Below are positions 9,053-44,100 of a DNA stretch of 64,000 nucleotides, in pieces; position 1 is the stretch's first letter, and every line of letters starts with the position of its first letter. Source of the stretch: Podarcis gaigeae (taxonomy: Eukaryota); assembly GCA_964106915.2 (NCBI GenBank), contig OZ066918.1; one strand, given 5' to 3'. The notes beneath the pieces were generated by a model that worked only from the letters and a program-made list of their open reading frames with translations, made no database searches and was not told the DNA's origin. The position numbers were made by a program, and so were the translations under genes.

Positions 9053-9364
9053 TATATATATATATGCTTTCATTCATATATATATGAATGAAAAGGAGCT
9101 CAATAACTAAACTTTATGCTGCTCTTTCAAGGTGGCTTTAGCAATAGCACTTCAGTCACTGCCCCTCCATTAACATATCTAGGTGTCTCAAACAATATGC
9201 ACCAGCTGTGCTTCGAATTATACATGCCACAAACAGCTAGCACTCTTTGCATCCCCATCTCAAGGTTGCTTCCACAGAACAGCCCTTTTTGTGTTGCTCT
9301 TTTGCAATCAGCTGGAAGTGGAATTAAATTCAAGGCTGAAATGAAGCACTCCCTCCAAAATATG

Positions 9365-9708
9365 GTAAAGGTAAAGGGACCCCTGACCATTAAGTCCAGT
9401 CGTGGCCGACTCTGGGGTTGCGGCGCTCATCTCGCTTTAATGGCTGAGGGAGCCAGCATACAGCTTCTGGCCCATCTGGCCAGCATGACTAAGCTGTTTC
9501 CGGCAAACCAGAGGAGAGCATGGAAACGCTGTTTACCTTCCCGCCGGAGAAGGTATCTACGTGCACTTTGACGGGCTTTCAAACTGCTAGGTTGGCAGGA
9601 GCAGGGACCGAGCAACGGGAGCTCACCCTGTCGTGGGGATTCGAACTGCCAACCTTCTGATTGGTAAGTCCTAGGCTCTGGTTTAACCCACAGCGCCACC
9701 CGCGTCCC
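9365..9708 (-). mobile_element. Sauria SINE (Squam1), full length
   Basis: Minus strand begins GGGACGCGGGTGGCGCTGTGGGTTAAACC, has a B-box-like GTTCGAATCC and ends in (ACCTTT)n. 11-bp TSD tccaaaatatg at 9354-9364 and 9710-9720. Confidence 0.93.
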
Positions 9709-12053
9709 ATCCAAAATATGTTACCCTACCTGCAAACTCGCTCTTTGCACTTCCTGCTGCTTCCAGCTTCTACTTTCCCTGTAGGAAACTAAGTAACTTG
9801 AAGCATAGTAAGCAAAATACCCTGCAGCAGGGTACTTAGAAAAAGAACCTAGCAGCATGAAGGCTAATTCCTGCCAGCAAGAGGAGGTGGCAATGTGAAC
9901 CTCATATAGACAATGGTTAGTGCAGAAGTAAAGGGTGTTCACAGCATGTAAAGAGCAGAGCAAACTTTGTTTCCTTTGTTGGTCTTCTACCTTGGACTTG
10001 GAAGATCAGAAGGTTTGTCAACACACAGAATATTACTATGTGAACTGGCATTTCATAACAAGATGTATCATCAGCTGCAGTGCCCATTAACGCCTTGTGG
10101 AGAGAAAGGTGTAGGAGAACATATGGGCAAAAACTGAGCATTGCAAATAGGAATGTATAAAAACCGTTGAGAGAGCATTTTTACCTCAGTTCATACTAGT
10201 CTAGCTTTCCAACTTAACAGAAAAATGTCAAAGGGCAACTGGGAGTGAGACGATGTACAGCCAGAATTTATTTAAAAATCTGATTGTATTCATGTGAGGT
10301 CACTATCCTAACAAAAATGATAAATTGTGAGGCATGTATATTGCATCCATGATATGCCTGAGCTCTGGCAGTCCTGGTGTGCTTTGTTTTTCCATTACCT
10401 TTAAAGTATGTCTGCATTAGCTCCCATTCAGGTTGGTTTCTTTGGCTTTCATTTCAATTTGTCTCTCATTGTCTCCGATTAGCCCTCCTTTGTTTCTGTG
10501 CTGAGCTTTAGGCACTTCCAGTACTGTATGTGTGTACCTCAAGCTCAGCAGAGGAACTCAAAAGACAAGATGCACCATGTAGAAGAAACAAATCATCTTG
10601 CTGATGTAGGAAGCTGGGACCTCCTGAAAGGCAGGAGACATGAATCTCCTGCCAATCAGTTTCATAGGATGGAGCCTGAGGTCAAAAAATTTTATGAGGG
10701 AGAAAACTTTCCCCCTCTGGTTTCTCCACATCAGGCATTATATATATATATCAGTTGTCCCCCCCCCCCCAAACAGCTCTGTAATATCCTTTGCAAGGTG
10801 TGGCATTTCTTGCAGCACCTGCCCCATCACCATGAGAAACACCGAATGCATCAATTACAACTTGCCTCTCCAAGGGCCACTCAGATGAAAATCACGCAGC
10901 CGCTACCGAGTCATCCCCAGGCATTCAATAACTGTGATCCTTCTTCTCACATGACACATTTACTTGCCTGAGTGCACACCTGGGAACAGCTGGGAACACT
11001 CACACAAATATAAAACTATTGTCTCAGCCAGCCTCCTTTTGTCTTCTTCTGGATATTGCAGTTCTAACAAACTGCATTAGGATTCTCTTCAAAGTCCCAG
11101 ACACAATCTGTTATTCACACTTCTTTTTCATCATTTTCTCATATGACGACTAATCTGCACTTTCTTCATTGTAGGCAAAAAGATGAGGATATTTGATGGG
11201 AATCATTTGTCTAGAGAACGGATAATGGATTTGCCTGCAGTTCTTTTAACAAAAACCAATCAGAGTATCTTGGACTTTGTGATATTGATCCAAAAATTCA
11301 TCAACAATAAACAATAAAAAAGAATTATTTTCTTTCCCCCTCAACTCACACCTTTGTACCTAGGCTAGGCAGGCATCTGTATATGTAACAAATAACATGG
11401 TGCACAAAGCTGTGTTACAGATGATTTTATCCTCTCTTTTTTTATTTCCACACAGCTTTAATATAATATTCCTAAATTATAAATGACTTGAGGTTTGCTT
11501 CACAGCCATTCCTATATGGATACTGTATTTCCATGTCCTCAATATCTGAATGAAGCACACAGAAATTTAAGTGAAAATTACACAAAATATGTGGCAGAAT
11601 CGTAATGAGAGCCAAAATAAATGTTCTTAGGTGGACATTATTGGTGCAAGAAAGGGGTTTGTGGGGTGGGATGGGGACATCTCAAAAACATTCCTTTTCC
11701 ATCCCCGAATGTCTGCTACTCTGCTGTTAACTTGCTGCTCCAGGCAGCTCCATTAATGCCTTCACCACCACCAGGGGGGCTTCTCCCATGCAGACCTATT
11801 ACAGCCAATTGTGTGAGATCTGGCATTGTGAATGTGATGATTTCACAATGTCAAATAGCAATTCAGAAGTGGCACTGTGACAATGTCACTGAGGGCAAAT
11901 GTTGCCAGGTTAGAGGGAGGACAATATTTTCACATCACCTTACCATCACTCTGCAAGTAAGGATGGCGGGGAGAAAGAATGAGACCATGCTTGCCCTGGA
12001 TGCATATCAAGTGTGCAAGAAAGGAGAATATGACTGCTGTAGTGGCAGCCACT

Positions 12054-12261
12054 CCCTGGAAAAGACCCTGATGTTGGGAAAGATGGAGGGCACAAGGAGA
12101 AGGGGACGACAGAGGACGAGATGGTTGGATGGTGTTCTCGAAGCTACTAGCATGAGTTTGACCAAACTGCGGGAGGCAGTGGAGGACAGAAGTGCCTGGC
12201 GTGCTCTGGTCCATGGGGTCACGAGGAATTGGACACGACTAAACGACTAAACAACAACAAC
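12054..12261 (+). mobile_element. BovB/RTE LINE 3' end
   Basis: Encodes LEKTLMLGKMEGTRRRGRQRTRWLDGV...WRALVHGVT. Ends in a (CAA)n tail. 13-bp TSD agtgg(c/g)agccact at 12041-12053 and 12262-12274. Confidence 0.92.
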
Positions 12262-18095: not shown

Positions 18096-19065
18096 TCATA
18101 GAATCATAGAATCAGAGTTGGAAGAGACCACAAGGGCCATCGAGTCCAACACCCTGCCAAGCAGGAAACACCATCAGAGCACTCCTGACATATGGTTGTC
18201 AAGCCTCTGCTTAAAGACCTCCAAAGAAGGAGACTCCACCACACTCCTTGGCAGCAAATTCCACTGTCAAACAGCTCTTACTGTCAGGAAGTTCTTCCTA
18301 ATGTTTAGGTGGAATCTTCTTTCTTGTAGTTTGGATCCATTGCTCCGTGTCCGCTTCTCTGGAGCAGCAGAAAACAACCTTTCTCCCTCCTCTATGTGAC
18401 ATCCTTTTATATATTTGAACATGGCTATCATATCACCCCTTAACCTCCTCTTCTCCAGGCTAAACATGCCCAGCTCCCTTAGCTATTCCCCATAAGGCAT
18501 CATTTCCAGGCCTTTGACCATTTTGGTTGCCCTCCTCTGGACACGTTCCAGTTTGTCAGTGTCCTTCTTGAACTGTGGTGCCCAGAACTGGACACAGTAC
18601 TCCAGGTGAGGTCTGACTAGAGCAGAATACAGTGGCACTATTACTTCCCTTGATCTAGATGCTATACTCCTATTGATGCAGCCCAGAATTGCATTGGCTT
18701 TTTTAGCTGTCGCGTCACACTGTTGGCTCATGTCAAGTTTGTGGTCAACCAAGACTCCTAGATCCTTTTCACGTGTACTACTCTCAAGCCAGGTGTCACC
18801 CATCTTGTATTTGTGCCTCTCATTTTTTTTGCCCAAGTGCAATACTTTACATTTCTCCCTGTTAAAATTCATCTTGTTTGTTTTGGCCCAGTTCTCTAAT
18901 CTGTCATGGTCATTTTGAAGTGTGATCCTGTCCTCTGGGGTGTTAGCCACCCCTCCCAGTTTGGTGTCATCTGCAAATTTGATCAGGATGCCCTTGAGTC
19001 CATCATCCAAGTCATTGATAAAGATGTTGAATAAGACCGGGCCCAAGAAAGAACCCTGTGGCACT
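18096..19065 (-). mobile_element. CR1 LINE 3' fragment (RT C-terminus + 3' UTR)
   Basis: ORF 18483..19064 has [27 protein letters not shown] and [15 protein letters not shown]. It continues after a frameshift as GMFSLEKRRLRGD. The tail is (GATTCTAT)n, read as tcatagaatcatagaatc on +. Confidence 0.95.
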
Positions 19066-20826
19066 TTGAAGAACTGAAGGTTGCTGTGCTTTTCTTTTTT
19101 ACGCTGTATACTACTATTACTCTAACTGTGAGAGTTCATCTCTTTCTTGTTTAGAGTGATGGGTTTTTTAAAATCTGAAGACTTATGAGATAGTGTGAGA
19201 GACAAATTAGGATGAAAAGGACAGAAAAATGTGAAATAAACATACTGTAAATCAGAGAACGACATATCAGCCCTGTGGAGTATACTCTGTCTTTTGCTTT
19301 TTATTGGCATCCTGTGGTCCATCAACGAGAGTTAGGGGCAAAACTGTGGCTCAAGCAGGCAGACATATGCTAAGATTTAAGGAAGGGTGTGCCTCTGAGC
19401 GCATGTGCAGCCAAGGAATTTGTGAGCAGTACCAGAACCAAGTTCACAAGTCCTTTCACTCCTTTCACCCCACTCCTGTTTTTTCTCCTGATTCCTCCCC
19501 CCCCCCCCCGGTGGTGGTGGTGGTAGTGGTAGTGGAAGGATCTATCAGAAAATTTCTATCCATCTTCTTCCCACCCCTGCTATAAATCAACAGTACATAA
19601 TTTGATGGAGCCCTATAGCAGAGTCCCACTAACTGTTCCTGCTAGACCCTGACATGTTCCTGCTTTCTTAGTTCTAGTCTAGCCCCCTCTCTCTGTGCCT
19701 GCTACATCGATGCATTATTCTATCCACCCCATCTGGCCTATTTGCATTGTTTCTTCTCCACATATTTGCAACAAACTTGTCCATCCCTCCATGGTACTGG
19801 CGAGCCTTGTGTCATTGCTCTGCCTGTAGCTTAATGGGCTGGGATGGCAAGCTATACTTCACACTTCCTAGTTAGAGACAAAGGGAAACAACAGAACCAG
19901 GGAATACTGAGCCCCTCCTCTCTTTGTAGTAGAGAACCCCCTTTGTCCAATTATTATATTACAACCCAGCCAATTAATCCAAGTATACTGGGGTGGGGGG
20001 GTGGGATAATTTTAAATAGACTGTTTGAACCTTGGGCTGTAAATAGATGGTGTTAAACACAAAGGCATTCATCAGCACTGAGCACCCTTTTATAAAGGAT
20101 TTCACTGCTTATAAGGTGATTTTTAAAATCCACATATTCATTCACTAATGATGAACTAATTAATACTTTCCAGTCTGGTAATTAATTATCTTAAGTTAGT
20201 GCATTTCAACAATCTTCAGCAGGAAGTCCCAGAGAAGTTATCATTCTTATAGTATCATAAAGACACTTCTATATTAAAGTGATACCTCAATTGTATTGAA
20301 TACCAGACACAATGATGCAATGAAACATCCTGACTAGCCATTTTTCTAGCTCCCCCCAACTATCTGGCCAGATAAATGAAATGTTCAACATCCCTGAGAA
20401 CTGTGATTTTTTGTTTGAATATATGAACTCTAGATTTACATATCATTTATGAGGTGCCTAAGTTTGAAACATCTGGTCTCTATAGCTGATGTCTTTATAA
20501 CATACAACGATGAGGGAGGTTAGCTTCCTGTTCTGTTTCCATTTTAATTTCTGACTTGACAACTACAGCACATATTATAGTAATAATATCTCTGTAGTCA
20601 CATATGAAACCATTTCTTCTTCCAGCACTGAAAGGTGTGAGATGAAAAGATTCTTGAAATTGGACAGCTGCAAAGTTTTAAGTGCTACTTTTAAGCCAGA
20701 ACTGTCCCCATCATGCTTTCAGAAACACTAATAATATATAAAGCCTTGACATCCTTCCGACAACATTTTCCTGAATCTCAAATTGCTCATGCATTAGAAA
20801 TTTTCTTAAAAGGCTCTGAAGTATAT

Positions 20827-22520: not shown

Positions 22521-23399
22521 AGTTTATCAGTCTAGATTTCATTTGAAGCTTTAATAATGGAAATAAAAGTTTCTGAACTCCTTCTCCCAGCTATGCAGAA
22601 GAAAGGGAGGGGAGAGCTCAGAGGTTGTTCATATCTTGCTAAACCATATGTGACATCTGAATGTGGCCATTTTTTAGGTTATATGACATGAAAAACGTCA
22701 GAACATGTCAACAATTAATAGTCTTCACTGGCTGCAGTTTTAGCATCTGTTTGGTAGCTGCATAAAATACTTTCTGGGTCTTTCAGTTAACAATCAAGCA
22801 CACAGTATCTGTAAAATATAGGGGACTCCTGTGTATCATCACTATTCTGCATAGCCTGAAGCTGCACATCCTGGAAGCATACAATATATCAGCATTTTGA
22901 CTTATGTGATGTAAATTGCTCATTACCAAAATCAGAAGCCACCTTTTCACCCTGCACCGTAAACAGTTTACTTCAAAAGTTTGCACAAAAATGACATGGT
23001 TCTGGAGTTCAGCCAGTTTTTCAAAGAAGTCCCTAAATGGTAACTTCATGTGTTTGTTATCTATCTTGAAAACTTTTTGCTTTTCCTTTGATGGCACTGG
23101 GATGTTCATATCAAAAGAAGGAAAAGCAAACCAAGAATTCATGGAACTAAAGAAAGCTTATCCCTGTAAATTGCTTAAGGGCCTGCCTGAGGAAACTGGT
23201 TCTACTTGAAACAACATTTTCCCCCATTCATGAATTGGTTTTCTTTACAATTTTGTATCAATTTCGTTTAAGATAGTGTTCTACCTCAGACCGGTGTAGC
23301 CTAGACAAATATGTCACCTTGGTAGTTCGGGAAAAGTGTAGAGATATATAAATATTTTAAAGTACCCCCCAAAAAGTTTGATGTGTTTTGTATAATGCA

Positions 23400-23900
23400 G
23401 AGCAGTCTACACAAGCCCAAGTGGAACCCGTTTTAACGACCTTTGATCGGCAACCTGGCTGTACACGGCCTCGGGATGTCAAGCCTGGGCAGGATATAGT
23501 GAAAGATTCGACAACCCTCTGGTCAAACTCAGAAGCTGTGGCAAGACTGAATGCTCTTTTGGAGGCAAACCGAAAAGGATGTCTTCCACCTGCCTTACAC
23601 TGCATGTTCCCTACAGCAACCGCTGACCCAAAAGGCCCACCCCTCTCAATTTTAGAGCATACCTTAAATGCAGAGTCTATGGACCTGTCGCTAAGTGATA
23701 CCCCCGTGCACCAGAACCCATCCCCGCAGCCACCAAAAATTAAGCCTCAATCCATGGCTGCTGCTGCTGCGGTAAGTGGTGTTTGGAAATTGCTGAGTAA
23801 GTAAGCTACAATTACTTCCTTCTTCCAGCCTATTGCCCCCCCTCGCCGCACGCATTCCCAGGTGGATTCTGCCGTGTCGGCTCCACAAGGCCCGGCATGA
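23400..23900 (+). pseudogene. 3' part of LINE ORF1 (5'-truncated, one internal TAA at 23802-23804, terminal TGA at 23898-23900)
   Basis: Frame is open from the insertion boundary (ORF track 23388..23804) and continues after the TAA as ATITSFFQPIAPPRRTHSQVDSAVSAPQGPA* in the same frame as ORF2. Confidence 0.65.
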
Positions 23901-23909
23901 CTCGATGGG

Positions 23910-26900
23910 GTGACCAGGAGATCACTTACTTTCTTATCCTGGAATGTAGCTGGCATTAAACCTAAGCTGATGGACCCATCCTTTGTCGCCTACATAAAAG
24001 GCAGTCGTATTCTTTTACTGCAAGAGACCTGGGCTTGTGAGGGCTTCTCCTTATCAGGGTATAAGGGCTTCTACCTGAATGCACACCAGAATTCACTATC
24101 ACCTGGTAGACCACGAGGTGGACTGGCTACCTTAGTTTCTTTGGCCTTAAATCTGCAGGTGGAACAAATCGACATCCAGTCGTCATCCATGCTGGGTGTA
24201 AAGCTACAAACAGCGGAGGAAGTGTTCGTGGTGATTAATGTTTATTTGCACCCAACCTACAAGAAAAACCTGGTGGACCAAAGATGGAGGGGAATTCAAC
24301 TGACTCTTGAAACTCTCCTAGAGAAATATCCTGAAGCCTCCTTCCTAGTTGCAGGAGATTTCAATGGCCGATTGTCTCACTCTGATAAATCATTATTTGC
24401 TAAATATAATAAATATCCCCCACTACCCATTTTAACCTCAGACCTTTTACCCAGGAATTTTAAAGACAGTGTTGCTACATACGCAGGTTTTAAATGTAGA
24501 CAAACTTTGATGTCTCTTAATTTTCACCTTTTAAATGGAGCTCTCAGTTCTGATTACCCTGCCGAATTTACTTTCTGGTCAGGCTCCCGAGCCTCTACCA
24601 TAGATTTTATTTGGACATCAGTAGACCTAATTCCCAAAATTTCTAACTTTAGGGTGGTAACGAGGCTGGAAAGTGACCATTTTACATTAGAACTCTCTCT
24701 GACCCTGGATGGAGAATTGGCTACCTATTCCTGTGTGCCTATTACAAATAACCAGCTTCAGATGAGACCCACTGCATTAATAAGGACCAACAATTTGGCT
24801 CAACGGATAAATGAACTCCTTCGGTCTGACCAACTGCAAGAGACAAGGGACTCCCTTGTCCAGGCAGTTGAGCCACTGCCAATGTATGACAAATTAGTAG
24901 ATCTGCTAAAACCTTTGTTGACTAAGGCCTCGGTAATGAATAGTAACCATTTCTCTCATAAAAAGTGGTTTGATGAGGAATGTAGACACTTCAAGAACAA
25001 CCTATATAATGAATTCTTGGCATATAGGGCATCAAATGACCCCGCACCTAGCAGTCACCTTATGAACCTCAAGAGAAGGTATAAAGCACTATTAAAGGAA
25101 AAGAAGCTTGCGGCAGAAAGAAATGATTGGAACAATCTTCTAAAAGCTGCAGAAAATAGAAATCCCTCCTCCTTTTGGCACCAAATTTCTCAATACCTGG
25201 GTAGACCGTGGTCAAGGATAGAACCCCAAATTTCAGCTGACAACTGGGAAAGCTTCTTCTCCGATTTATATGCAGCTCATGCTGCCAGTGGAGAAAGGAT
25301 AGAATTGGCCCCCTTGCCTGAGTGGGATCCTGTTACCTGCTCTGAAGTGGAAACACTTATAGGCCAATTTGAGGCGGGCAAGGCACCCGGAGACGATCTT
25401 ATCTCCATAGATGTTATTAAAGCCAATAAGGATTGGTGGTGTCCACCCTTAGCAGCTCTTTTTACTTATATAAACAAAACAGCACAATTTCCTCCAAGCT
25501 GGAACTCTGCACTGATTGTGTTAATCCACAAGAAAGGGCCACGCACAGACCCGGCCAATTTTAGACCAATTAGCCTGCTAAATGTTATCAGGAAGATCTA
25601 TTCAAGATTTCTACTTAACAAATTAACGACCTGGATGGAAAGTAACAACATCATCGCAGAGGAACAGGCGGGTTTCCGCCCTGGAAGATCAACAACAGAC
25701 CAAATCTTGATCCTAAATCACTTGGCCACCAAGTATGCTGACAATGGCCTAAAAGCCCTCCACGTCGCCTTTATAGACTTTAAGCAGGCTTTTGATCTAA
25801 TTCCCAGGAACCAGCTATGGGCAAAATTGGCAGCGACATCTATCGACCGCCGCCTTCTCCTGCTGATTATTAATTTGCATACAAATACCTTCCTGAGGAT
25901 TAGGCTAGATAGCAAGGGGCTAATCTCCAATCCGGTTGCCACCACTAGAGGGGTAAGACAGGGCTGTTTGCTTGCCCCTGCCCTATTTAATTTCTATATT
26001 AATTCGCTAGTGGTGCATATGGCAAATACTGATTTCCATCCATCAAAACTGGCAGGACGAGCCTTGAATGTCCTGCTGTATGCGGACGATGCCGCCCTAT
26101 TAGCTACGTCCCCCATCGGATTAAGGAGGATGCTTCGAGCTCTTCATGAATATGTGACCCAACATGAGCTCCAACTAAATTATGCCAAAATAATGGTCTT
26201 TGCCGCTCGACCGAAACCTAATTTATGGTCAATTAATGGTATTCCTTTAGAGCAGGTCGGCTGCTTCAAATACCTGGGTCAGGTTGTTAGATCAAATAGG
26301 TCCTTCTTGGCGCACAGAGAATACATAGCCTCGAACGCATCGAAAGCAGCCTTGGTGATTAGAATCCTGTACTCTAAGAAACAGGCACAAACTGTCAAAG
26401 TTGCCTTGCGACTCTTTAAAATGAAAGTCCTCCCTCTTCTACTGGTGGGCATTGCCTTGGGCTCACGTAGGGACTTTGAAAAATTGGAATCTATCCAAAC
26501 CCAATTCCTCAGGGCCATACTCAGGATCCCCCCCTCCGTGGCAGGTGCGATCATGAGATTGGAAACCGGTTGCCAAGCCTTTAGGTATGTGGCCCTGAAA
26601 GCGAAGTTATGGCTTTGGCTTAGGCTTTGCTTCAGACCGGTGGGTTTGGCCCCCTTGATTCTGAGGGATAACTTTAAATCTCCATGGGAAGGGGAGATAG
26701 TGGAGGAAGTGCAGAAGTGCGGGTTGTCCTCCCTTTATATACAGTCCATGACGTATAACCACGCAAAGGCGGTGATCGCCCAAAGATTAAGGGATATTGC
26801 GAGACAGGAGGACATAGCCCGTGTGAAACCTGGGGGAGCAGATGTACCGAGCTGCTCCAGCTCGCTACCTGGCGGATATCCACTACGTGGAATACCGCAG

Positions 26901-27237
26901 ACTATTTACCACGGCTAGGCTGAATGTTCTTGACTCGGCGGTTCTGAAGGGAAGATATGGAGGAGTCCCATATGACCAGAGATTATGCCATTGTGCGTTG
27001 GGTGAGGTAGAATCCACAGAGCACATTTTAATGAGCTGTCCCTTCTACAACGATTTAAGACAGTATCTTATAACCCCATACTTACCCCAGCTTAGTCCCC
27101 GACAAAGAGGAAAGCAGACAGCATATCTGCTAAATAAGTCTTCTAGGAAAACAACTTTGTCAGTGGCTAAATTCCTTTTCCTGGCACTCAAGCGTTGGAA
27201 ACGTACAATTGAATGCCTTGATGTGGGTTATCTGTGA
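23910..27237 (+). CDS. LINE ORF2: AP endonuclease + reverse transcriptase + C-terminal CCHC-like knuckle, one +1 frameshift near 26832-26842
   Basis: APE motifs SWNV, LQETW, GDFN, STIDF, SDH. RT motifs PGDD, FRPISLL, QAGFR, FIDFKQAFD, GVRQGCLLAP, LYADD, FKYLG. ORF 26842..27237 supplies RLCHC...EH...C. Removing one G from the run at 26832-26836 joins the two into about 1108 aa. Confidence 0.93.
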
Positions 27238-30200
27238 GAGGTTTAGTGCTGTGGCCCTACCTTATTCATGTACCCCTATGATGTTTTAGTTCATAATTCT
27301 GTATTGTGTTTTATTTCTGTGTTTTATTTCTGACTATCGGTCGAATAAAGGAAATTGATTGATTGATTGATTGATTGATTGGTATAATGCAAAAATCTTT
27401 TCTGAGGAACAGCAAGGTCCCAGTAAAAAAACCAAAAACACCCACATTTGAATGCATAAATAAATCTATACGTGCATCAAAATGGTCTCAAGTTTGTTTT
27501 TAAAAAGGGGGGGAATATATCAGACTTTGACTCATTTACTTATGGGTACAGTGATATGAAGTTATATAGACAAATACACACACATCTTATACAGATGATG
27601 TAGCATGTGATCACATGGAGGCTGGTATGGGGACTGCATTTGAAGACCCAAACCCTGAGTGCCACACATTCATTGGAACTTATGAATGGTGCCCTTGGGC
27701 ATAAAGGTTGTATGGTCACGGGCTCCATTTCATAAAACTCATGGCTTGCATTTTTGCACAGTATTAATTATGTAGACAGAGTTTGAGGGGGCCCCTCCAT
27801 AAAGCGTGCTGCAGTGCGTCCTCTATTGCTGAGCCTAAGTCAGCTGTCAGCTGTTGCTTGAATTAGTACTGCCCACCATTGTTCCAACAAATTGGAGAAC
27901 ACCCCTGAAGACTAGGCTCCCCCTCCACCTGTCATGTAGTCTGCACAGGGAGACAGTGACTAGTAAGTTTTGACAAAAAAACCCACAGTGCCATCATACT
28001 TCACACTCTATTTCAGTAGCTGAATGGCACAAAGAGAATGCACAGTTTCTTCCTGCCCAAGTAGAAGCACACATAGTATGTTGACTTCATATGCTTTAGC
28101 TTTTTGCTTATTCACACATGCAGAAAGGTTGGCTGTTTGAAATACTGCCAAGTGGGGTCTGCTTCACATAGCAAGTAGTTTGGGAAATGCCTCTTCTTTA
28201 CAACTACTGTTTTTTAAGTGATATCTTAGACTCTTCTTGGCACAGACTTAAAGAATAAAACCACATGGATAAAAAGGCACATGCCAAAAGATTGGCACTT
28301 TAAAGGATGCTGCAAAAACACATCTAATCTTAGAAAAATCTATGAAATATTTCTTCTATTTATCAAACATGTTTGAAAAGACAAGAAAAGGGAAACAGTT
28401 CAGATGATAATGTGCCTCACTGTCTCTCCTATACATACAAATTGGGGACGGGAAGCAACATCTCACCTTCCAGGTCTTACAGACCTGTCCCACTAGACAC
28501 TTACTAGTGAGCATAATGTTTGACTAGGCCTTATGCACATTGCATTATAGCTGAGCTGAAAACACCAAGAGATGTTTTTCAGCTCAAAACAGCTGAAAAA
28601 TAGGCATGGGTCAAGGAGTAAATTGGGAGAGATTAAAAGAAATTTAGGGGGACTTATCGTTGGTGGGTGGCAGTAGGTGATTTTAAATTAATTATTTTTC
28701 TTCTGCCAAGCTTGTGAGAAGCAAAACTGCAGTTGGAGGCTGTTATTTTCTTTCCCCTATAGTCTTGTTCCTGGGCATTCTGGGGGGGGGGGATGGCTAT
28801 TGCCAAAATAATTATGGTGGTTCCCCACTAGAGACCTCCAATAGCCAATTGCTAGACTGTTTTGTAATGATACTAAATACATATGTATTTAAACGGTGCT
28901 ATTGCATGCCAAAAGTAACACTCTTCCCAAATATCTAAATAAATGTTGCCCTCTAGTAGCCCCCAAACTTCAGCACTCACAAATTTAGGTGCAAGCCTTT
29001 CATAACTGCCTTATGCAGAGTAGCTTCTATGTGGGTAGGCCTGAACAGAGTGATGAATATACCAGGCAAAATTCAGGCACATAAATGGGCAATATTGCCT
29101 TACACACCATCGATTGTACATATATGCACCCTAGTCAATCATTTTGTCCTAGCATAAATTACTGATTGCCCCAGAGGAGGCACTGGTGCACCAGAAGTGC
29201 AGGGACAGAAGCCACAGTTTTAGCTCTGCTAAATGTTTCCTAAATCTGTATGATATGGACCATTGCACTTGGATATGATCACCAAGGGTTATATCCAATG
29301 TGCAATAGACTTCTGCTTGTGCAATGGAGCTGACCCCCATGATTTGTGGGGCTAGTAGTGGGGTAAGAAGAAGTACCATTGTCTAAGTACAGGTCCACTT
29401 GTGTACACACACACACGACTCATTGGTCACTATTTACTACAATGCAGGCATTAGGAAGTTAAATACCCAATAAATAAGGTGCAAAACACACTACAGAAGT
29501 ATAGAAACTGAATTTTGTAATTAATTGTGAGATTCTCTCCTTGCTCCCCTTTTTGGCTTTAGTCTCAAATACATTTAACTTAATCCAACTCTAACTAAAG
29601 TTAAGGAAGGGGGAGAATCAGCCTTCATTATTTATTTGAAAGATCAGTAGACCATACCTCTAGTATTATTAAAGCTGTAATAACAACAGTCAGTCAATTG
29701 TGCTTTAACTATTAACATACAGTAACAGCCGCCCTTTGCCAGTTTTTGTTACCTCTACATAGCTTCGCAGGAGGCTAATCTACATTTCCTAGTTAAGTTC
29801 CTCCCTTCACATGAAAGTGCTTACACTTTGAGACAAATGTATCAGGGGGAAAAAGAATGTAAAAGGAGAGAAGACATTTTGAAAAGGATTTATGTGATTG
29901 CCCCAAATCCACCTCAATAATAGGAAACAAAATCAATATATTTAAAGCTATTTTAACAACTATAGGGTGAGCAATCTATTCAAAGATTTTATAACTTAGG
30001 TCGTGACATATTGGCATATCTTATAAAGCAACCGTCTCCTACATCTGCCATTTACAAATGTGTGTCTTTTTTCAATATTGATTCCATAAACAAAGCCTCT
30101 TCTTCCTTTGTAGCTGAAAGGGAAAGCAAAATGATGCAGGCATAACAGGAATGGGAACAAACAGCGACATCCGGACCCAATGTTGCTTTTTATTTATTTT

Positions 30201-35061: not shown

Positions 35062-35426
35062 AAAAAGGTAAAGGACCCCTGACAGTTAAGTCCAGTTGCA
35101 AACGACTCTGGGGTTGCTGCGCTCATCTCGCTTTACTGGCCGAGGGAGCCAGCGTTTATCCAGAGACAGCTTTCCTGGGTCATGTGGCCAGCATGACTAA
35201 GCTGTTTCTGGCGAAACCAGAGTAGTGCACGGAAATGCCGTTTACCTTCCCGCTGGAGCGGTTCCTATTTATCTACTTGCACTTTGACGTGCTTTCGAAC
35301 TGCTAGGTAGGCAGGAGCTGGGACCAAGCAATGGGAGCTCACCCCATCGCAGGGATTCGAACCACCGACCTTCCGATCGGTAAGCCCTAGGCTCAGTGGT
35401 TTAGACCACAGCGCCACCCGTGTCCC
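35062..35426 (-). mobile_element. Sauria SINE (Squam1), full length
   Basis: Same head and tail as the copy at 9365. TSD acc(a/g)gtatacata at 35049-35061 and 35428-35440. Confidence 0.93.
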
Positions 35427-36854
35427 AACCGGTATACATATTTTATGACAAATCTGGAAATACTGATGCAAAAGTACTCTCCAGCTTCCCATAAATTCCA
35501 TATGTATAATGTTTAAAACTATTGTTCTGCACTAGGTTTCCTATCCAGACATATATTCCTCTCAAGCCTCAATATTTCCTAAGGTATCATTACCCTTGAT
35601 TTCTTTATTTTCTTATACTGCTGTTAAATAAAATAAACTGAGGAAATTTACAGATTTTTAAAACTTGGCCCATACAGAGGACACTACCTTGCAGGACAAC
35701 CTGAAGTGACAATAGGGGTGTGCATGAAGTGCGTGTGGGGTGTCAATGTGCACTGAAAAGTCCTACTGGCTTGTGCTGGCCAGGTAGGGAAAGGGAGGGC
35801 AGATGTTCTGAATTTTTCCCACATGGATCTTTGCTTTTTTTTAGTATTTCCTTATTGGCTCCAATGGAGGGAAATTAGTTACATCATATTGAGACTGGCA
35901 AAGGAAGGCTGATTCTGGGGCTTCTTCCATGAACGAAGGGCCCTTGGACCCACCAGATCCTAGGCCATCTCCATACTATCCCTGTTCCATGCAGAGCTTT
36001 CAGTGGGTATAATTGGGGCCTTTGGGGCATAGGCATCTTCACCTCAGATGACTCCATTAGTTGATATTACAAATATAAATACATATAATTCAGTACTGGG
36101 TATATCAGGACTATAGGCATAGACACACCTCCATTAATGGGTAAATAGTAATGGATGAGGATTTGATCCCCCCCCACTTTGAGGGAGATGAACCAACACT
36201 CCATTTTCTATCCATATAAATAGAAAAGTCTTAGTTTGAGATCTTAGGGGTTAGAAGGCAGGACATAACTACTTGGTACCCAGAGTTTGCTGTACTTTGT
36301 ACTGTGCTTTCACTTTGGTTTTAATGGTGTACTTCTCATGAGAAGAAGCAGATGATGAAATAACAGCAACAATCTCTAGTCTATGTCCTATATTAAATTG
36401 GGAATATTTATTCCAGTTTCAGAGTTTCCTTTGTGGCTATTTGAATTGCAGAATTTCCAGAGCATCTATATTTATATTGTGTGGCTACATAGTATTCCCC
36501 AGGCTGTTTATTGAAATGTTCCAAACTGCATTTCCATCACATATAATTATCCACTATAATTAGCCCCACTGTGGCATACTAGTCAATAATATAGGGGCTG
36601 GGAAGTGGCAGCTCTCGAACAAATCTGACCCTCTGAAGGGCAAGGCTTCAGCTGCCAACAGCAAATTTAAGTTTGCTTCCCTTGCCTTCTTACCTGACAC
36701 AAACATTTTAGGCACTGGGGAGAGGAAGAGCAAAAGTTGAGGGCAAAATAGGGAAGAAATAACAGCTGTACATTCGGTGATGAAGCAGAGCAAACACCCT
36801 CAGGAAACTCTCCAAGAAACATAGTAGTCAACAAGGAACATAGGAAGTTGCCTT

Positions 36855-39119: not shown

Positions 39120-39312
39120 AACAGCTGTGCTTGCAGTAGTTCCCCCACTCCCACCACACACAGAGAGAGAGAAGGAAAAAGGAAATATATTGCTAAAGAT
39201 AAAAGGTGAAGATTTCTCCCCTCGCATTTTAAATTAAATCAAATATACATGAAGAACATATTTCTGTTAAAATCAAAATGATAACAAATTGGACTGATCT
39301 AATGTGGCATAT

Positions 39313-39713
39313 GGGACGCGGGTGGCGCTGTGGGTTAAACCACAGAACCTAGGACTTGCCGATCAGAAGGTCAGCGGTTCAAATCCCCGCGATGGGGTGA
39401 GCTCCCATTGTTCAGTCCCTGCTCCTACCAACCTAGCAGTTCGAAAGCACATCAAAGTGCAAGTAGATAAATAGGTACCGCTCCTTTCTGGTCATTGACC
39501 GTATTAAAGATATTTGATTTGATAGGTACCGCTCCAGCGGGAAGGTAAACGGCGTTTCTGTGCGCTGCTCTGGTTCGCCAGAAGCGGCTTAGTAATGCTG
39601 GCCACATGACCCGGAAGCTGTATGCCGGCTCCCTTGGCCAATAAAGTGAGATGAGCGCCGCAACCCCAGAGTTGGCTATGACTGGACCTAATGGTCAGGG
39701 GTCCCTTTACCTT
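39313..39713 (+). mobile_element. Sauria SINE (Squam1), full length, interrupted by a 37-nt insertion
   Basis: Head gggacgcgggtggcgctgtgggttaaacc and tail ccctttaccttt. TSD taatgtgg(c/t)ata at 39300-39311 and 39714-39725. Confidence 0.93.
39485..39521 (+). mobile_element. Extremely 5'-truncated retroposed 3' end (LINE-type) inside a Sauria SINE
   Basis: tttctggtcattgaccgtattaaagatatttgatttg is flanked by an exact 14-bp duplication ataggtaccgctcc (39471-39484, 39522-39535). Confidence 0.7.
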
Positions 39714-42559
39714 TAATGTGGTATACAATATATATTATCCTCCAGTAGGTAACCAGAAACATGCTGCTGCATTGTCAAAGAACACAGAAAGGGAGGGTGT
39801 TCTGAACCCAGATGGCCTGTGCGAATGGTTTGATGCAGGGATACCAAATAAACACCAGAATGGCCAGTTCTAGTGCTTTCTTACAGGGAGATGTAAACTT
39901 GCAACACAGCCTCTGAAGGTCCACTGCCATTGCAGATATGGTTCAGACATTGCGGCAGTGAGAGGCCATGATGACTTGTCCGCAAAACACTAATATGTTA
40001 AGCATAACTTATACAAAAGACAGCATACGTCCATAGGGCCAGAATCTCTCATCAACCCACCTGACCTATGAGGGCATAGGTGGCAACTATCAATTCCAAG
40101 ACTCCCTTTCTAGGCCAAGAGGCCACCATCCCAGGGCCCACAAGTAAACACAGCATCAAAGCAAGGCAGTTAGCATATATCAAAGCAAGGGCATTTATAA
40201 GCATCCATGAGCTCATCCTTGCAACAACTGCCAACTAGTCCCAAGGTTATCTTGACTACCAATATAGTGTTTGCAGGCCTTCTGGAACAGTCTTGCCTTT
40301 GGTTCAACACAGAGAGGGAAAGCAAAGCTTTGCAACAGGGGACAGGTAGCAACCTGTCTTTGAAGCAAAGCTAAAAGAGGCAATGCAGAACATAGGGAAG
40401 AATAAGATCTAATAATTAAGAAGCTGTCTTATTCTCAGCCAGACCATTGGTCTATCTATAGCTGTGTCCACTCTAGAGGTGTAATATGTGCTTGGGTCAC
40501 TGTGTGTGGGTTTGTGCTGCTTTATCCCTGTTTTCCCTCAGCAACCTGTACAACTGTCTACCCCATTCAGAAGCATTCCCCAAACTTCAAAAAGGGGTTT
40601 TTAAGGAGATTTGAAAGCAGATGGGGGCAGGAAAGTCACTGTTAGTCAGACCAGTTCTTCCCTGGCCAGAGATCACAGGAGGTTGGGTAAAGGGATTCCA
40701 ATTCTATTCCATTTCTAATGTCATCAAAAGTATGATTAGGTCCAAACTGGGCCCAGAATTAACCAAGCTATTCTGCAATTTTATTTAATTTTAATTGAAG
40801 AGACTTCAATTCTGAACTGAACATGTCCAAGTGTGCCTTCCACTCTGAACTGCAGTTGCTACTCTGGCAGACAGAACTCACCTTGGAATAGTTTAGTGCT
40901 TTTTTATCTTAAAATAATATCTGCATGTGGAATTTCAGTTCTGGCTACACTTGTGTGACCATTATTTGGGGTGAAATCCAGTTCTGTTCGCATCAGAGGC
41001 GAGGGACACAAAGAGTTCTCCTCCACAAAAGACTTATCCCTATTCATTTTATTGAAGTAAATATATATGCACATTTCCTTGTGCACACAGATCTATTCCC
41101 TTTCTTGGACTTTATGGGGCATCTCATGGATCTTTCACTTGGAATGAATACAGATACATAACTATTTTCTTTTTAAGAGGACTCCCTGGCATTCATATAT
41201 GAGCACATCAATATAAGTCACAGCAACACAAAATTTCTTGAGTGTCTAAGAATCAAGAAGTAGCAAATACACAGTACAGAATGCAAATCCACAAAATTCT
41301 TAGCACTTGAAAATGATTTATAATTAGTCATGTTTCCATATTTTGCATTTGATAAATCATATGAATTTCTCATTTCAGAGCTTACATGTTTAATTATGTA
41401 TTGAAGATATTTCTAAAACCTTTGCGGTCAAAAACAGTCATTTTACCCTCTTATGTGTAAATATTTAGAAAGCAATGCTGTCATGTTCTTAAGACAAAAA
41501 AGAAAAATATCCGAGGGGAAGCTCTGTCAATGGGTTTTGATTTGCAGTTCAAAGCCATTAAACTTTTCCATTTACATGCAAAATACAAAACTACATGTAA
41601 ATGTCAACTGATTTAAGGATATAAAAACAAGTGACAGTTTAGCAATGTTAAATATGCTGACATGCAATTCTGCAGTAAGAGAAGAAAATAGTATTATTTT
41701 CCACTGCATAAACAATTAACCATTTCTATTTAATTAACAGAAAGTAACCTTTATTACTCTAGAACCGGGATACATTTAGTGAGCAAACATGCAGAAAAAC
41801 TGAGATGAGATATATTATACTTATCAACATTTCCCTGCACAAGTCTGCTTGTGAGTAAACTCCCCAGAATTTATTTTAATGTAGAGGTCAGAACTTAAAG
41901 GTGTTTATAGCAATTTGTGCTAGAATTTCTTGTGATAAAGTTAAGGAGCAGAAAAAGGAGCAGCAAACGAGAAATTGTGGCAAACATATATACTGGCCAT
42001 CAGAAATCATACCGTTGCTAAAACTGCATGCATTGGAACTTCCAGCCCGGCCAACCTACCTGGCCAGCTGATTTAAAGATTCTATAGCCAGTGGTATAGC
42101 TGATTACATACCTAGTCGTACAGAACCCTCACAACATGAAAATAAATTTGGGCACTGCAGACATTTGTATGAATCAGTCACGCCTTGTTTAGGAATCAAA
42201 TTTTACCATTCAGCTATCCTAATATTTCCTCTACCTCAGCTTGGAGCAGCTTTGGGGAGGGGTATTATTTAAATCAGCGCTGCGTGGTTGAGATGTTGCC
42301 TTAATCCATTTAGTCTCTGTTGATTCCCGGATACAATTTACCCACTACCACCTGCTTACTGGCTGCGGAGGAAACTTACAAGTCCCTGTTTTGTAAAATA
42401 CCAAAATTAAAAGACTTTATGAGATCTGATTATAGCTCTCATATGGCAGGATAGTTTGGCCCTTATGATTATGGATCAGGAGCCACTGGTTTCCATTTTT
42501 GGCATATCCCCCGCCCGTAAGACAAAAGTGGATTGGTGTGATGCTGTTGTGTCAGTGTT

Positions 42560-42712
42560 CCGTTGCGCCAGAAGCAGCTTAGTCATGCTGGCCACATGAC
42601 CTGGAAAAACTGCCTGCAGAGCAGACAAACGCCGGCTCCCTCGGCCTGTAAAGCAAGATGAGCGCTGCAACCCCAGAGTTGTTCGCGACTGGACTTAACT
42701 GTCAGGGGTCAT
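42560..42712 (+). mobile_element. Sauria SINE 3' fragment
   Basis: gcttagtcatgctggccacatgacc...gcgctgcaaccccagagt...ggacttaactgtcaggggtc matches the 3' half of the full copies in this window. Confidence 0.85.
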
Positions 42713-44100
42713 TTAAAAATGGCTATATAGATATGTGAGAGACAGCTCTTGATTTTTGAAATTCACATCAATAAAATATTTTCAACTGCTAAAACTTACA
42801 GAATCTTAAGAGACTTTTGCTATTTTAATTTTGTGTCAATAAAATTCAGATAACATATCCTGAATCAAATGGTATTACCATTAACAATTTTCAACTGAAC
42901 TTCATCAGAATCAAGTACATCTAGCATTTTCTGGTTTTGCCTGAGAAAATGTTTTATAGCACGTTAAGGCTGGGAAAGGAGAAGTGCAATCTTAGTGTAT
43001 ATCATTTCAGGTTTGTAGGAAGAGACCCAGGCAGCATAGAGCAAATGATAATAATTCAGATACCCTTAGGTTTGTCAGTTGTTTAAAGATAAATACATAA
43101 CCATAAATCAAAGCTATTTCAGTGGGACAAGACACATTCTTTGAAATGTACAGTTTATCATACACTTTCCACAGCTTTTGGGGGGAGAGATAAGGCACAT
43201 GCTTGTTTACCCAAAGCACTTAAGAACTGTGATTTATTTGCTGGAATTGTCACATTTTGGATAGTAAGAAGAAGTAACTGTTAATGGTGTGCCAAAAAAG
43301 AAAAGGGGGGGGGGAGCCGAAGACAGTGAGACAGTTAATAAACCATTTGGAGTGGATAATATATGGAGGAAACAGATGTCTTCTTAAAAATAAACTGGGT
43401 GTGGGTGGGTGTCCTCCCTGTTTTCCTTTGTTGGCCTGAATGAATAAAGCTTATAAAAAGTTGGGGGTGGGGGGAGATAGATACATAAGATACAGTCCAG
43501 TAAAGGTTAAGCATACCTGAGTGCCACTGATTTCAGTAAGTGACAGTTAAGCATATATCTAATTTTCTTGCACTGTCAATTATTTCTTAAATCATGGTGT
43601 CTGTGGCATTATGAAGATGAAAACATTTTCCATCCTTTAAAACTTATATAAGCCACAGCAAACAATTTATGAACCCAACAGTTATCCTAATTTGTATTTG
43701 ATTTGAGTTTTCGTTGTTGGTTTTAATATTGTATTTAATCTTATTTAATTTTTGTGTATTAGGGGTATCTGCAGTTTGCCAAATATTTATATGCTGTATT
43801 TAAATCAAAATAACAACAGTCCCTAACCACTGGCCATGCCAGCTGGGGCTGGAATGAGTTTTAGCCCAGAAACATCTGGAGGATCACAGTTTCCCCACTT
43901 TTGCCCTGGGGTTTGCAACCAGTCAGATTCCTAGGCGGGGGAAAGTGATACATGTTTTCTGCATGGTAACGCCTGGCAGAGACTTGCTCTGCTTGCAATC
44001 ACCTTCTTGGAACTTAGTCCACGAGCAAAACCTTCTGGCTACAACATCAAACCATTTTTTTTTCTACTTTTGTTTGTTTGTGTCCCCCCACAATTCACCC

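Follow-up and report, generated by a model that had tools for sequence, protein, structure and literature searches.

How is the second protein of a long interspersed nuclear element (LINE) produced when its reading frame follows the first across a single in-frame stop codon and has no AUG ahead of its catalytic domain? This question is raised by a retrotransposon without long terminal repeats (non-LTR) on the plus strand of a 64,000-nucleotide stretch of Podarcis gaigeae DNA (assembly GCA_964106915.2, contig OZ066918.1; hereafter the window), in which open reading frame 1 (ORF1) ends at a TGA and ORF2 continues in the same frame (Table 1). The original prediction read this junction as possible programmed, retrovirus-like readthrough of UGA-C aided by a pseudoknot. 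The mode of LINE ORF2 translation is an open question in the field (PMC3894237, PMC5009743), and a naturally occurring family that has a single in-frame stop and lacks an AUG offers a compact test case of reinitiation versus readthrough. By analogy with known elements, we lean, just past an even judgement, towards a separate ORF2 protein made by termination and reinitiation, probably at the GUG at 23910. The pseudoknot is probably a chance layout.

The end of ORF1 reads GCA-TGA and is followed in frame by CTC GAT GGG GTG ACC AGG AGA TCA CTT ACT TTC TTA TCC TGG AAT GTA, which enters the endonuclease. It was noted that the letters and coordinates of this junction agreed exactly with the original prediction, which was also borne out in placing the first in-frame ATG past the SWNV motif, in reporting two nearby out-of-frame ATGs that quickly reach stops (20 and 2 codons), and in describing two complementary stems behind a 7-nt spacer. 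Residue 7 of the L1 endonuclease aligned to residue 8 of the window ORF2 (phmmer), so an ordinary ORF2 start would be expected at approximately 23904-23918; by extrapolation from the phmmer alignment, GTG 23910 corresponds to L1 residue 3, and it lies ten residues before the tryptophan of SWNV (W-10). Asn14 of the L1 endonuclease has a catalytic role. Initiation at the MDPS methionine (23970) was rejected, as it would remove the first endonuclease strand with the Asn14 equivalent, and the ORF2 of the window sequence therefore needs a non-canonical start. Two of the 14 codons preceding the tryptophan codon, GTG 23910 and AGG 23916, are one substitution from ATG. From base composition, the joint chance of the in-frame layout and TGA-C was approximately 0.025. 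Ribosome skipping of the 2A type at ...PQGPA was also rejected, as the D-x-E-x-N-P-G-P motif (as given in PMC3708506) is not present there. A 2A-like IELNPGP of the kind described in the same source was seen at the N-terminus of a distant match, P0024 (residues 17-23).

We found that the upstream frame matches three Podarcis lilfordi proteins. Two of these, gene models from separate loci on contigs that differ in length, P0005 (568 aa) and P0006 (352 aa), share 84-86% identity with it and both terminate in ...VPQGPA, where the window reads ...APQGPA-stop. Because both terminate at the same residue, the TGA is the true ORF1 end of the family, and a private nonsense mutation (e.g. CGA to TGA) was rejected as the origin of the stop; these proteins locate the end of ORF1 and do not give the identity of the stop codon or the bases that follow. 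The original prediction of an ORF1 upstream thus held for the family end at the TGA, but the frame is not intact in this copy, which is truncated at 23400 and carries a TAA at 23802. The third match, the gene model P0007, leads from ORF1 into the central part of the endonuclease and so bypasses the junction. A fused ORF1-ORF2 protein (approximately 1690 aa) was not found among 1658 candidates of 552-1759 aa (3 matches) or among 2399 candidates of 290-2000 aa (3 matches).

The called starts of the ORF2 relatives varied in their position relative to the motif. The closest intact ORF2, P0001 (99% identity, on a contig of 5069 nt), is called from MDPS, P0158 (72%) from a methionine just past SWNV, and P0002 (33% across that region) from a methionine further on. 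In the sister lineage, P0157 (81%; one of 2 matches among 7 candidates) begins MRTLTFLSWNV and apparently starts at a codon 15 nt past the stop, its methionine (W-8) being aligned to AGG 23916; this protein carries both the upstream and an MDPS-type methionine, and the caller took the upstream one. Over the nine residues up to the tryptophan, P0157 and the window differ at two, the methionine start and a Ser-to-Thr change, both of which lie inside the proposed stems. The distant relatives P0009, P0026, P0049 and P0031 start 10 to 39 residues before the motif tryptophan, with the first methionine at W-10, W-17 and W-19 in the first three. Among 103 relatives of at least 1000 aa with an endonuclease match, 56 called starts fell before the motif and 47 after it; this classification of N-termini covers the 139 of 154 proteins that matched the endonuclease profile, with the other 15 left out, and motif positions were extrapolated from a profile seeded with 15 sequences. 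An N-terminal extension of at least 500 aa occurred in one of 64 motif-covering relatives, a distant multi-domain protein of 2485 aa. None of 42 pattern matches in bacterial and archaeal genomes was confirmed as a relative. If gene callers often skip the true start, P0001 is therefore weakened as a witness for the missing AUG; alternatively, AUG-less ORF2s are common in the group, and the window junction is therefore less special. When the slim odds of a private hit at these few sites are set against P0157, the subfamily of the window LINE would appear to be AUG-less, with a confidence of about three in four that is a judgement and was not computed.

The original prediction had named initiation at GUG 23910 as an alternative, and we consider this a better reading of the junction than readthrough: the codon lies at W-10 and aligns to the first methionine of P0009. 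In the proposed course of events, ribosomes would terminate at the UGA and a small share would stay on the mRNA; the retained ribosomes would reinitiate a few codons downstream without an AUG, most likely at GUG 23910, and small quantities of ORF2p would result as a protein of its own, in the manner described for human L1. The shared frame may be inherited from a short-spacer arrangement whose length is a multiple of three, and the stem-2 hairpin would be incidental, or at most an aid to restarting, like the downstream structure of SART1. We favour this course because the ORF1 end is common to P0005 and P0006, because relatives begin ORF2 as a separate protein shortly before the motif (P0157, P0009, P0026, P0049), because P0001 and P0158 are called from starts past the motif, as would fit an AUG-less subfamily, because an ordinary ORF2 start is expected at 23904-23918, because no fused relative was found among the candidates searched, because the pseudoknot is weak, and because the known mechanism of L1 accounts for this arrangement with no need of recoding.

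L1 already provides precedents for ORFs in one frame and for ORF2 translation that does not depend on the AUG. In human L1, the spacer is 63 nt and ORF2 translation is AUG-independent yet requires a translated upstream ORF (PMC4091050, PMC11485995), while in rat L1-3 the in-frame spacer measures 60 nt and contains two in-frame stops, and a fusion protein was not observed (PMC2241872). Mammalian LINE-1 resembles the window LINE in an ORF2 that combines an apurinic/apyrimidinic endonuclease-like (APE) domain with one for reverse transcriptase (RT), in ORFs that share one frame behind a short spacer, and in ORF2 expression that need not use an AUG. However, L1 keeps its AUG and rat L1-3 has two further spacer stops, whereas the window has one stop and no AUG; the window LINE also differs in clade, having an ATTG tail and an ORF1 without a Pfam match. 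Silkworm SART1 needs a downstream structure for reinitiation at its UAAUG (PMC3894237, PMC5972666, PMC3708506), and a downstream structure alone is therefore no pointer to readthrough. As in SART1, an AUG overlaps the ORF1 stop in the window (ATGA) and a structure lies just downstream, but the overlapping AUG of SART1 is in the ORF2 frame, whereas ATG 23897 is out of frame and opens a 20-codon peptide. Initiation, and not bypassing, was named as likely for LINE ORF2 (PMC5009743). If true, reinitiation at this junction would be a natural example of what mutation showed for L1, useful and unsurprising.

Several observations weigh against reinitiation at the GUG. The stop has an out-of-frame AUG on each side, and both would compete for ribosomes with the GUG; the ORFs are separated by a single stop in a leaky context, unlike those of rat L1-3. 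The in-frame layout with TGA-C amounts to a coincidence of about 1 in 40, and the knot considered below falls in the best 2-5% of controls. The absence of fused relatives is also expected under strict readthrough. Start calls are noisy (47 of 103 internal), so P0001 shows an AUG-less subfamily weakly, and the P0157 methionine is a gene-caller start on a single short contig, read from the protein.

We regard it as unlikely, if still worth serious weight, that the active family has an ordinary in-frame AUG that was lost privately in this dead copy, in which case the finding would be an artefact and ORF2 would be translated by ordinary AUG reinitiation. Such a loss could reflect a single substitution in AGG 23916 or GTG 23910, or a small indel that displaced ATG 23905 or ATG 23897 from the frame. 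The copy is dead, as it is 5'-truncated within ORF1 (beginning at approximately residue 403 of P0005), carries the in-frame TAA where relatives have Gln, and has lost two codons of ORF2, whose frame also shifts near 26830. Compared with the intact P0001, its ORF2 has 16 substitutions and the 2-codon deletion across 957 aa, the frameshift being seen by tblastn of P0001, and this decay speaks for a private loss, as do the two codons one step from ATG, one of which aligns exactly to the first methionine of P0157, the G run that adjoins ATG 23905, and the frequency with which gene callers skip real starts (up to 47 of 103). However, at approximately 1.7% amino-acid divergence, the chance that one of these few specific lesions occurred is estimated at only a few percent, and the near-identical and intact P0001 is called from MDPS though the caller chose the upstream methionine in P0157.

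Programmed readthrough of the UGA-C, by a few percent of ribosomes and aided by the stem-2 hairpin or a pseudoknot of 5+6 bp, appears improbable. Its product would be a Gag-Pol-like ORF1-ORF2 fusion of approximately 1690 aa, and the single in-frame stop, the family-level ORF1 end and the lack of an in-frame AUG ahead of the catalytic motif are all consistent with it; the out-of-frame AUGs would likewise disfavour clean reinitiation. A canonical motif resembling the proliferating cell nuclear antigen (PCNA)-interacting peptide (PIP) box would stand approximately 35 residues before the endonuclease in the fusion. The H-type pseudoknot of the original prediction survived as a set of possible pairs and not as a favoured structure. 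As drawn, it has loops of 0 nt (loop 1), 2 nt (loop 2) and 9 nt (loop 3), stem 1 opens with two G-U pairs, and the spacer between stop and stem is CUCGAUG; because loop 1 has 0 nt, one stem must lose a pair. The best buildable knot (5+6 bp, loop 1 of 1 nt) reached -8.0 kcal/mol by a rough Dirks-Pierce-type penalty, whereas nested folding of the same stretch of 65 nt gave -12.7 kcal/mol. Nested folding cannot show stems 1 and 2 together; within it, stem 1 was nearly absent (Table 1), and stem 2 had context-dependent pair probabilities of 0.16-0.97. From this model, the stem-2 hairpin is probably a real fold. It begins at +17, near the +12 to +16 of known stimulators.

The rarity of the knot was assessed against control sets. 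When the criteria were tailored to the layout as observed, a 6+6 layout turned up 6 times in 415 ORF2 positions and 3 times in 200 other TGAC sites, and at equal stability at none of either (0/415, 0/200). When stem lengths were left free and loop 1 was required to have 1 nt or more, knots as good or better were found at 4 of 218 ORF2 positions, at 3 of 200 other TGAC sites, in 14 of 300 synonymous recodings and in 7 of 300 dinucleotide shuffles. Across these four sets the knot is nominally unusual, though not strongly (p 0.015-0.047), and its place in the best 1.5-4.7% counts towards readthrough. Folding of the region as a whole was at chance level against shuffles (z 0.13, -0.67, 0.64 and 0.04), and no Rfam match to the junction was found up to E 10 beyond two unrelated chance hits (E 4.7 and 8.3). 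The absence of excess folding and of an Rfam family, the negligible probability of stem 1 and the 0-nt loop of the drawn knot all argue against a stimulatory signal. The P0157 comparison also bears on this question: both of its differences up to the tryptophan fall in the proposed stems, one of them being the methionine start, although stem 2 could be rebuilt in that lineage by a synonymous choice of Ser codon.

Comparison with known readthrough signals was also made. In Moloney murine leukaemia virus (MLV), the stop is UAG-GGR, the 8-nt spacer is purine-rich and impairs function when shortened, loop 1 is 1 nt and stem 2 is all G-C (PMC13517186). The window shares with gammaretroviral gag-pol a single in-frame stop between structural and polymerase ORFs, a short spacer and a possible H-type layout. 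However, it has UGA-CUC in place of UAG-GGR and a 7-nt spacer that is not purine-rich, and thus lacks the type III stop and spacer; nor is a stable pseudoknot indicated, given the 0-nt loop 1, the two G-U pairs and a stem 2 that is not all G-C. The retrovirus-like character suggested by the original prediction was therefore not upheld: of the gammaretroviral signal, UAG-GGR, the spacer of 8 nt rich in purines and the G-C-rich stems are all missing. Type II signals are UGACGG or UGACUA, with an alphaviral set of UGACGV/UGACUD, and UGACUC is given solely as a predicted type II variant, from a single arthropod virus (PMC13517186). As in the type II signals of alphaviruses and coltiviruses, the UGA of the window is followed by C and a hairpin begins approximately 16 nt past the stop's first base; the UGA-C context and the single predicted variant lend readthrough some support. 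The sequence is nevertheless UGACUC and not UGACGG or UGACUA, outside both the gammaretroviral and the alphaviral signals, and the hairpin has 6 bp and is not an extended stem-loop.

For readthrough as a whole, the part of the original prediction that stood was an ORF1 end shared by the family and an ORF2 in need of a non-canonical start, whereas the pseudoknot was unfavoured, the P0157 methionine lay in a stem and no fused relative with a sense codon at the junction was found among the candidates searched. The L1 mechanism, moreover, accounts for the layout without recoding. No case of readthrough in a non-LTR element was found in the literature searched; most subscription journals, Repbase reports and supplements lay outside this search, and a precedent may exist. 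If readthrough were true, it would bring retrovirus-like recoding to LINEs and a new readthrough signal to a vertebrate genome, and the fusion would tether a PCNA-binding-like ORF1 motif beside the endonuclease. The junction might then be common in the clade, because about half of the long relatives are called from a start inside the endonuclease.

Stop-start coupling at AUGA 23897 or ATG 23905 followed by a frameshift before SWNV, or splicing of an ORF1 donor into ORF2, is very unlikely: the ATGA overlap resembles stop-start junctions such as the UAAUG of SART1, ATG-GGG-TGA places a G run at a stop, and splice-donor-like GTAAGT words occur at 23770 and 23796 near the ORF1 end, but no slippery heptamer was recognisable by eye in 23897-23937, two inefficient steps would be needed in series, and an acceptor pattern scan of 23800-24000 gave one site, 23815, which is upstream of the stop and so useless.

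Table 1. Features of the LINE and of its ORF1-ORF2 junction (window coordinates).
Feature	Position	Strand	Evidence
APE-type non-LTR retrotransposon, 5'-truncated and decayed	23400..27381	+	Target-site duplications, tail, Pfam Exo_endo_phos and RVT_1
5' target-site duplication, 10 bp	23390..23399	+	Identical word recurs at 27382-27391
3' target-site duplication	27382..27391	+	Word seen just twice on the plus strand of the window
AATAAA at 27344 and (ATTG)7 tail at 27354-27381	27344..27381	+	
ORF1, 3' third (approximately 166 of approximately 568 codons), interrupted by TAA 23802-23804	23400..23900	+	84-86% identity to P0005 and P0006
PIP-box-like motif close to the C-terminal end of ORF1; relatives have QATITSFF, the window has TAA as its first codon	23802..23825	+	
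ORF1 stop TGA, then CTC	23898..23900	+	Read from the letters; same terminal residue in relatives
Out-of-frame ATG overlapping the stop (ATGA), 20-codon ORF, stop at 23957	23897..23959	+	
Out-of-frame ATG-GGG-TGA mini-ORF, 2 codons; 4-G run after AT	23905..23913	+	
In-frame GTG, candidate non-AUG start with G at -3, a single base change away from ATG	23910..23912	+	Aligned to first Met of P0009
In-frame AGG, one substitution from ATG, within 5' strand of proposed stem 2	23916..23918	+	Aligned to first Met of P0157
Proposed stem 1 (23908-23913 with 23922-23927)	23908..23927	+	-4.5 kcal/mol alone; pairing probability never above 0.03 across six nested folds
Proposed stem 2 (23914-23919 with 23937-23942)	23914..23942	+	6-bp hairpin, 17-nt loop, -8.4 kcal/mol
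SWNV motif, first endonuclease strand; Asn aligned to L1 Asn14	23937..23948	+	phmmer against 2v0s and 8sp5
First in-frame ATG (LMDPS), past SWNV, too late for a whole endonuclease	23970..23972	+	
ORF2 with endonuclease, reverse transcriptase and a C-terminal Cys/His motif, shifted in frame near 26830	23901..27237	+	Pfam; tblastn of P0001 in two frames

The element belongs to a bicistronic LINE family of lacertid lizards. It has the defining parts of a LINE, namely an N-terminal APE endonuclease and a non-LTR RT in ORF2 (PF03372, E 3.4e-12; PF00078, E 1e-33; phmmer against the L1 endonuclease structures 2v0s and 8sp5, E 6e-5) with a separate upstream ORF1, and the hallmarks of LINE insertion (10-bp target-site duplication, (ATTG)7 tail and 5' truncation). 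Self-blastn revealed no second copy in the window. It was noted that both ORF2 deletions relative to P0001, the 2-codon loss at approximately 26185 and the frameshifting one at approximately 26830, sit at short repeated words; this protein comparison suggests that microhomology-mediated loss may lie behind both. In a midpoint-rooted tree of 53 RT regions from the top 60 identifiers, with unnamed relatives throughout, the window, P0001 and P0008 were grouped with support of 1.0, and the tree gave no clade name. The LINE may be RTE-X-like; RTE-X is similar to the window LINE in an ORF1 with an APE-RT ORF2, in a motif of the form C-x-C...E...H...C...Y at the C-terminus and in a tail of short tandem units. 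Passages of PMC9004415 and PMC11203168 gave no defining RTE-X features.

The ORF1 of this family is of an uncharacterised type, and the Podarcis lilfordi annotation lists it as a hypothetical host protein. P0005 had no Pfam match at E up to 1, and a comparison with the ESM Atlas was uninformative (best feature score 0.77, TM at most 0.21 by query). A PCNA-binding motif is present in L1 ORF2p, and an ORF1p is not known to carry one. Using the consensus Q-x-x-[ILM]-x-x-[FY]-[FY], we found QATITSFF once each in P0005 (residues 537-544) and P0006 (residues 321-328), compared to 0.005 expected by composition; the motif lies within the low-complexity C-terminus of ORF1, approximately 35 residues ahead of the endonuclease. 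The pattern was not found in P0001 (ORF2).

Elsewhere in the window, three plus-strand stop-to-stop frames of 154-209 codons without a Pfam match (9107-9571, 10483-10971 and 11621-12250) are probably due to chance. A fragment of a second, unrelated reverse transcriptase was identified on the minus strand at 18483-19121 (Pfam RVT_1, E 1.2e-12), and a 55-nt inverted repeat with an 18-nt spacer at 2438-2565 resembles a short non-autonomous DNA transposon. A dispersed repeat of approximately 300-400 bp, presumably Sauria-SINE-like, was present in at least four copies in both orientations at 80-91% identity (9366-9680, 35063-35427, 39312-39715 and 42556-42715).

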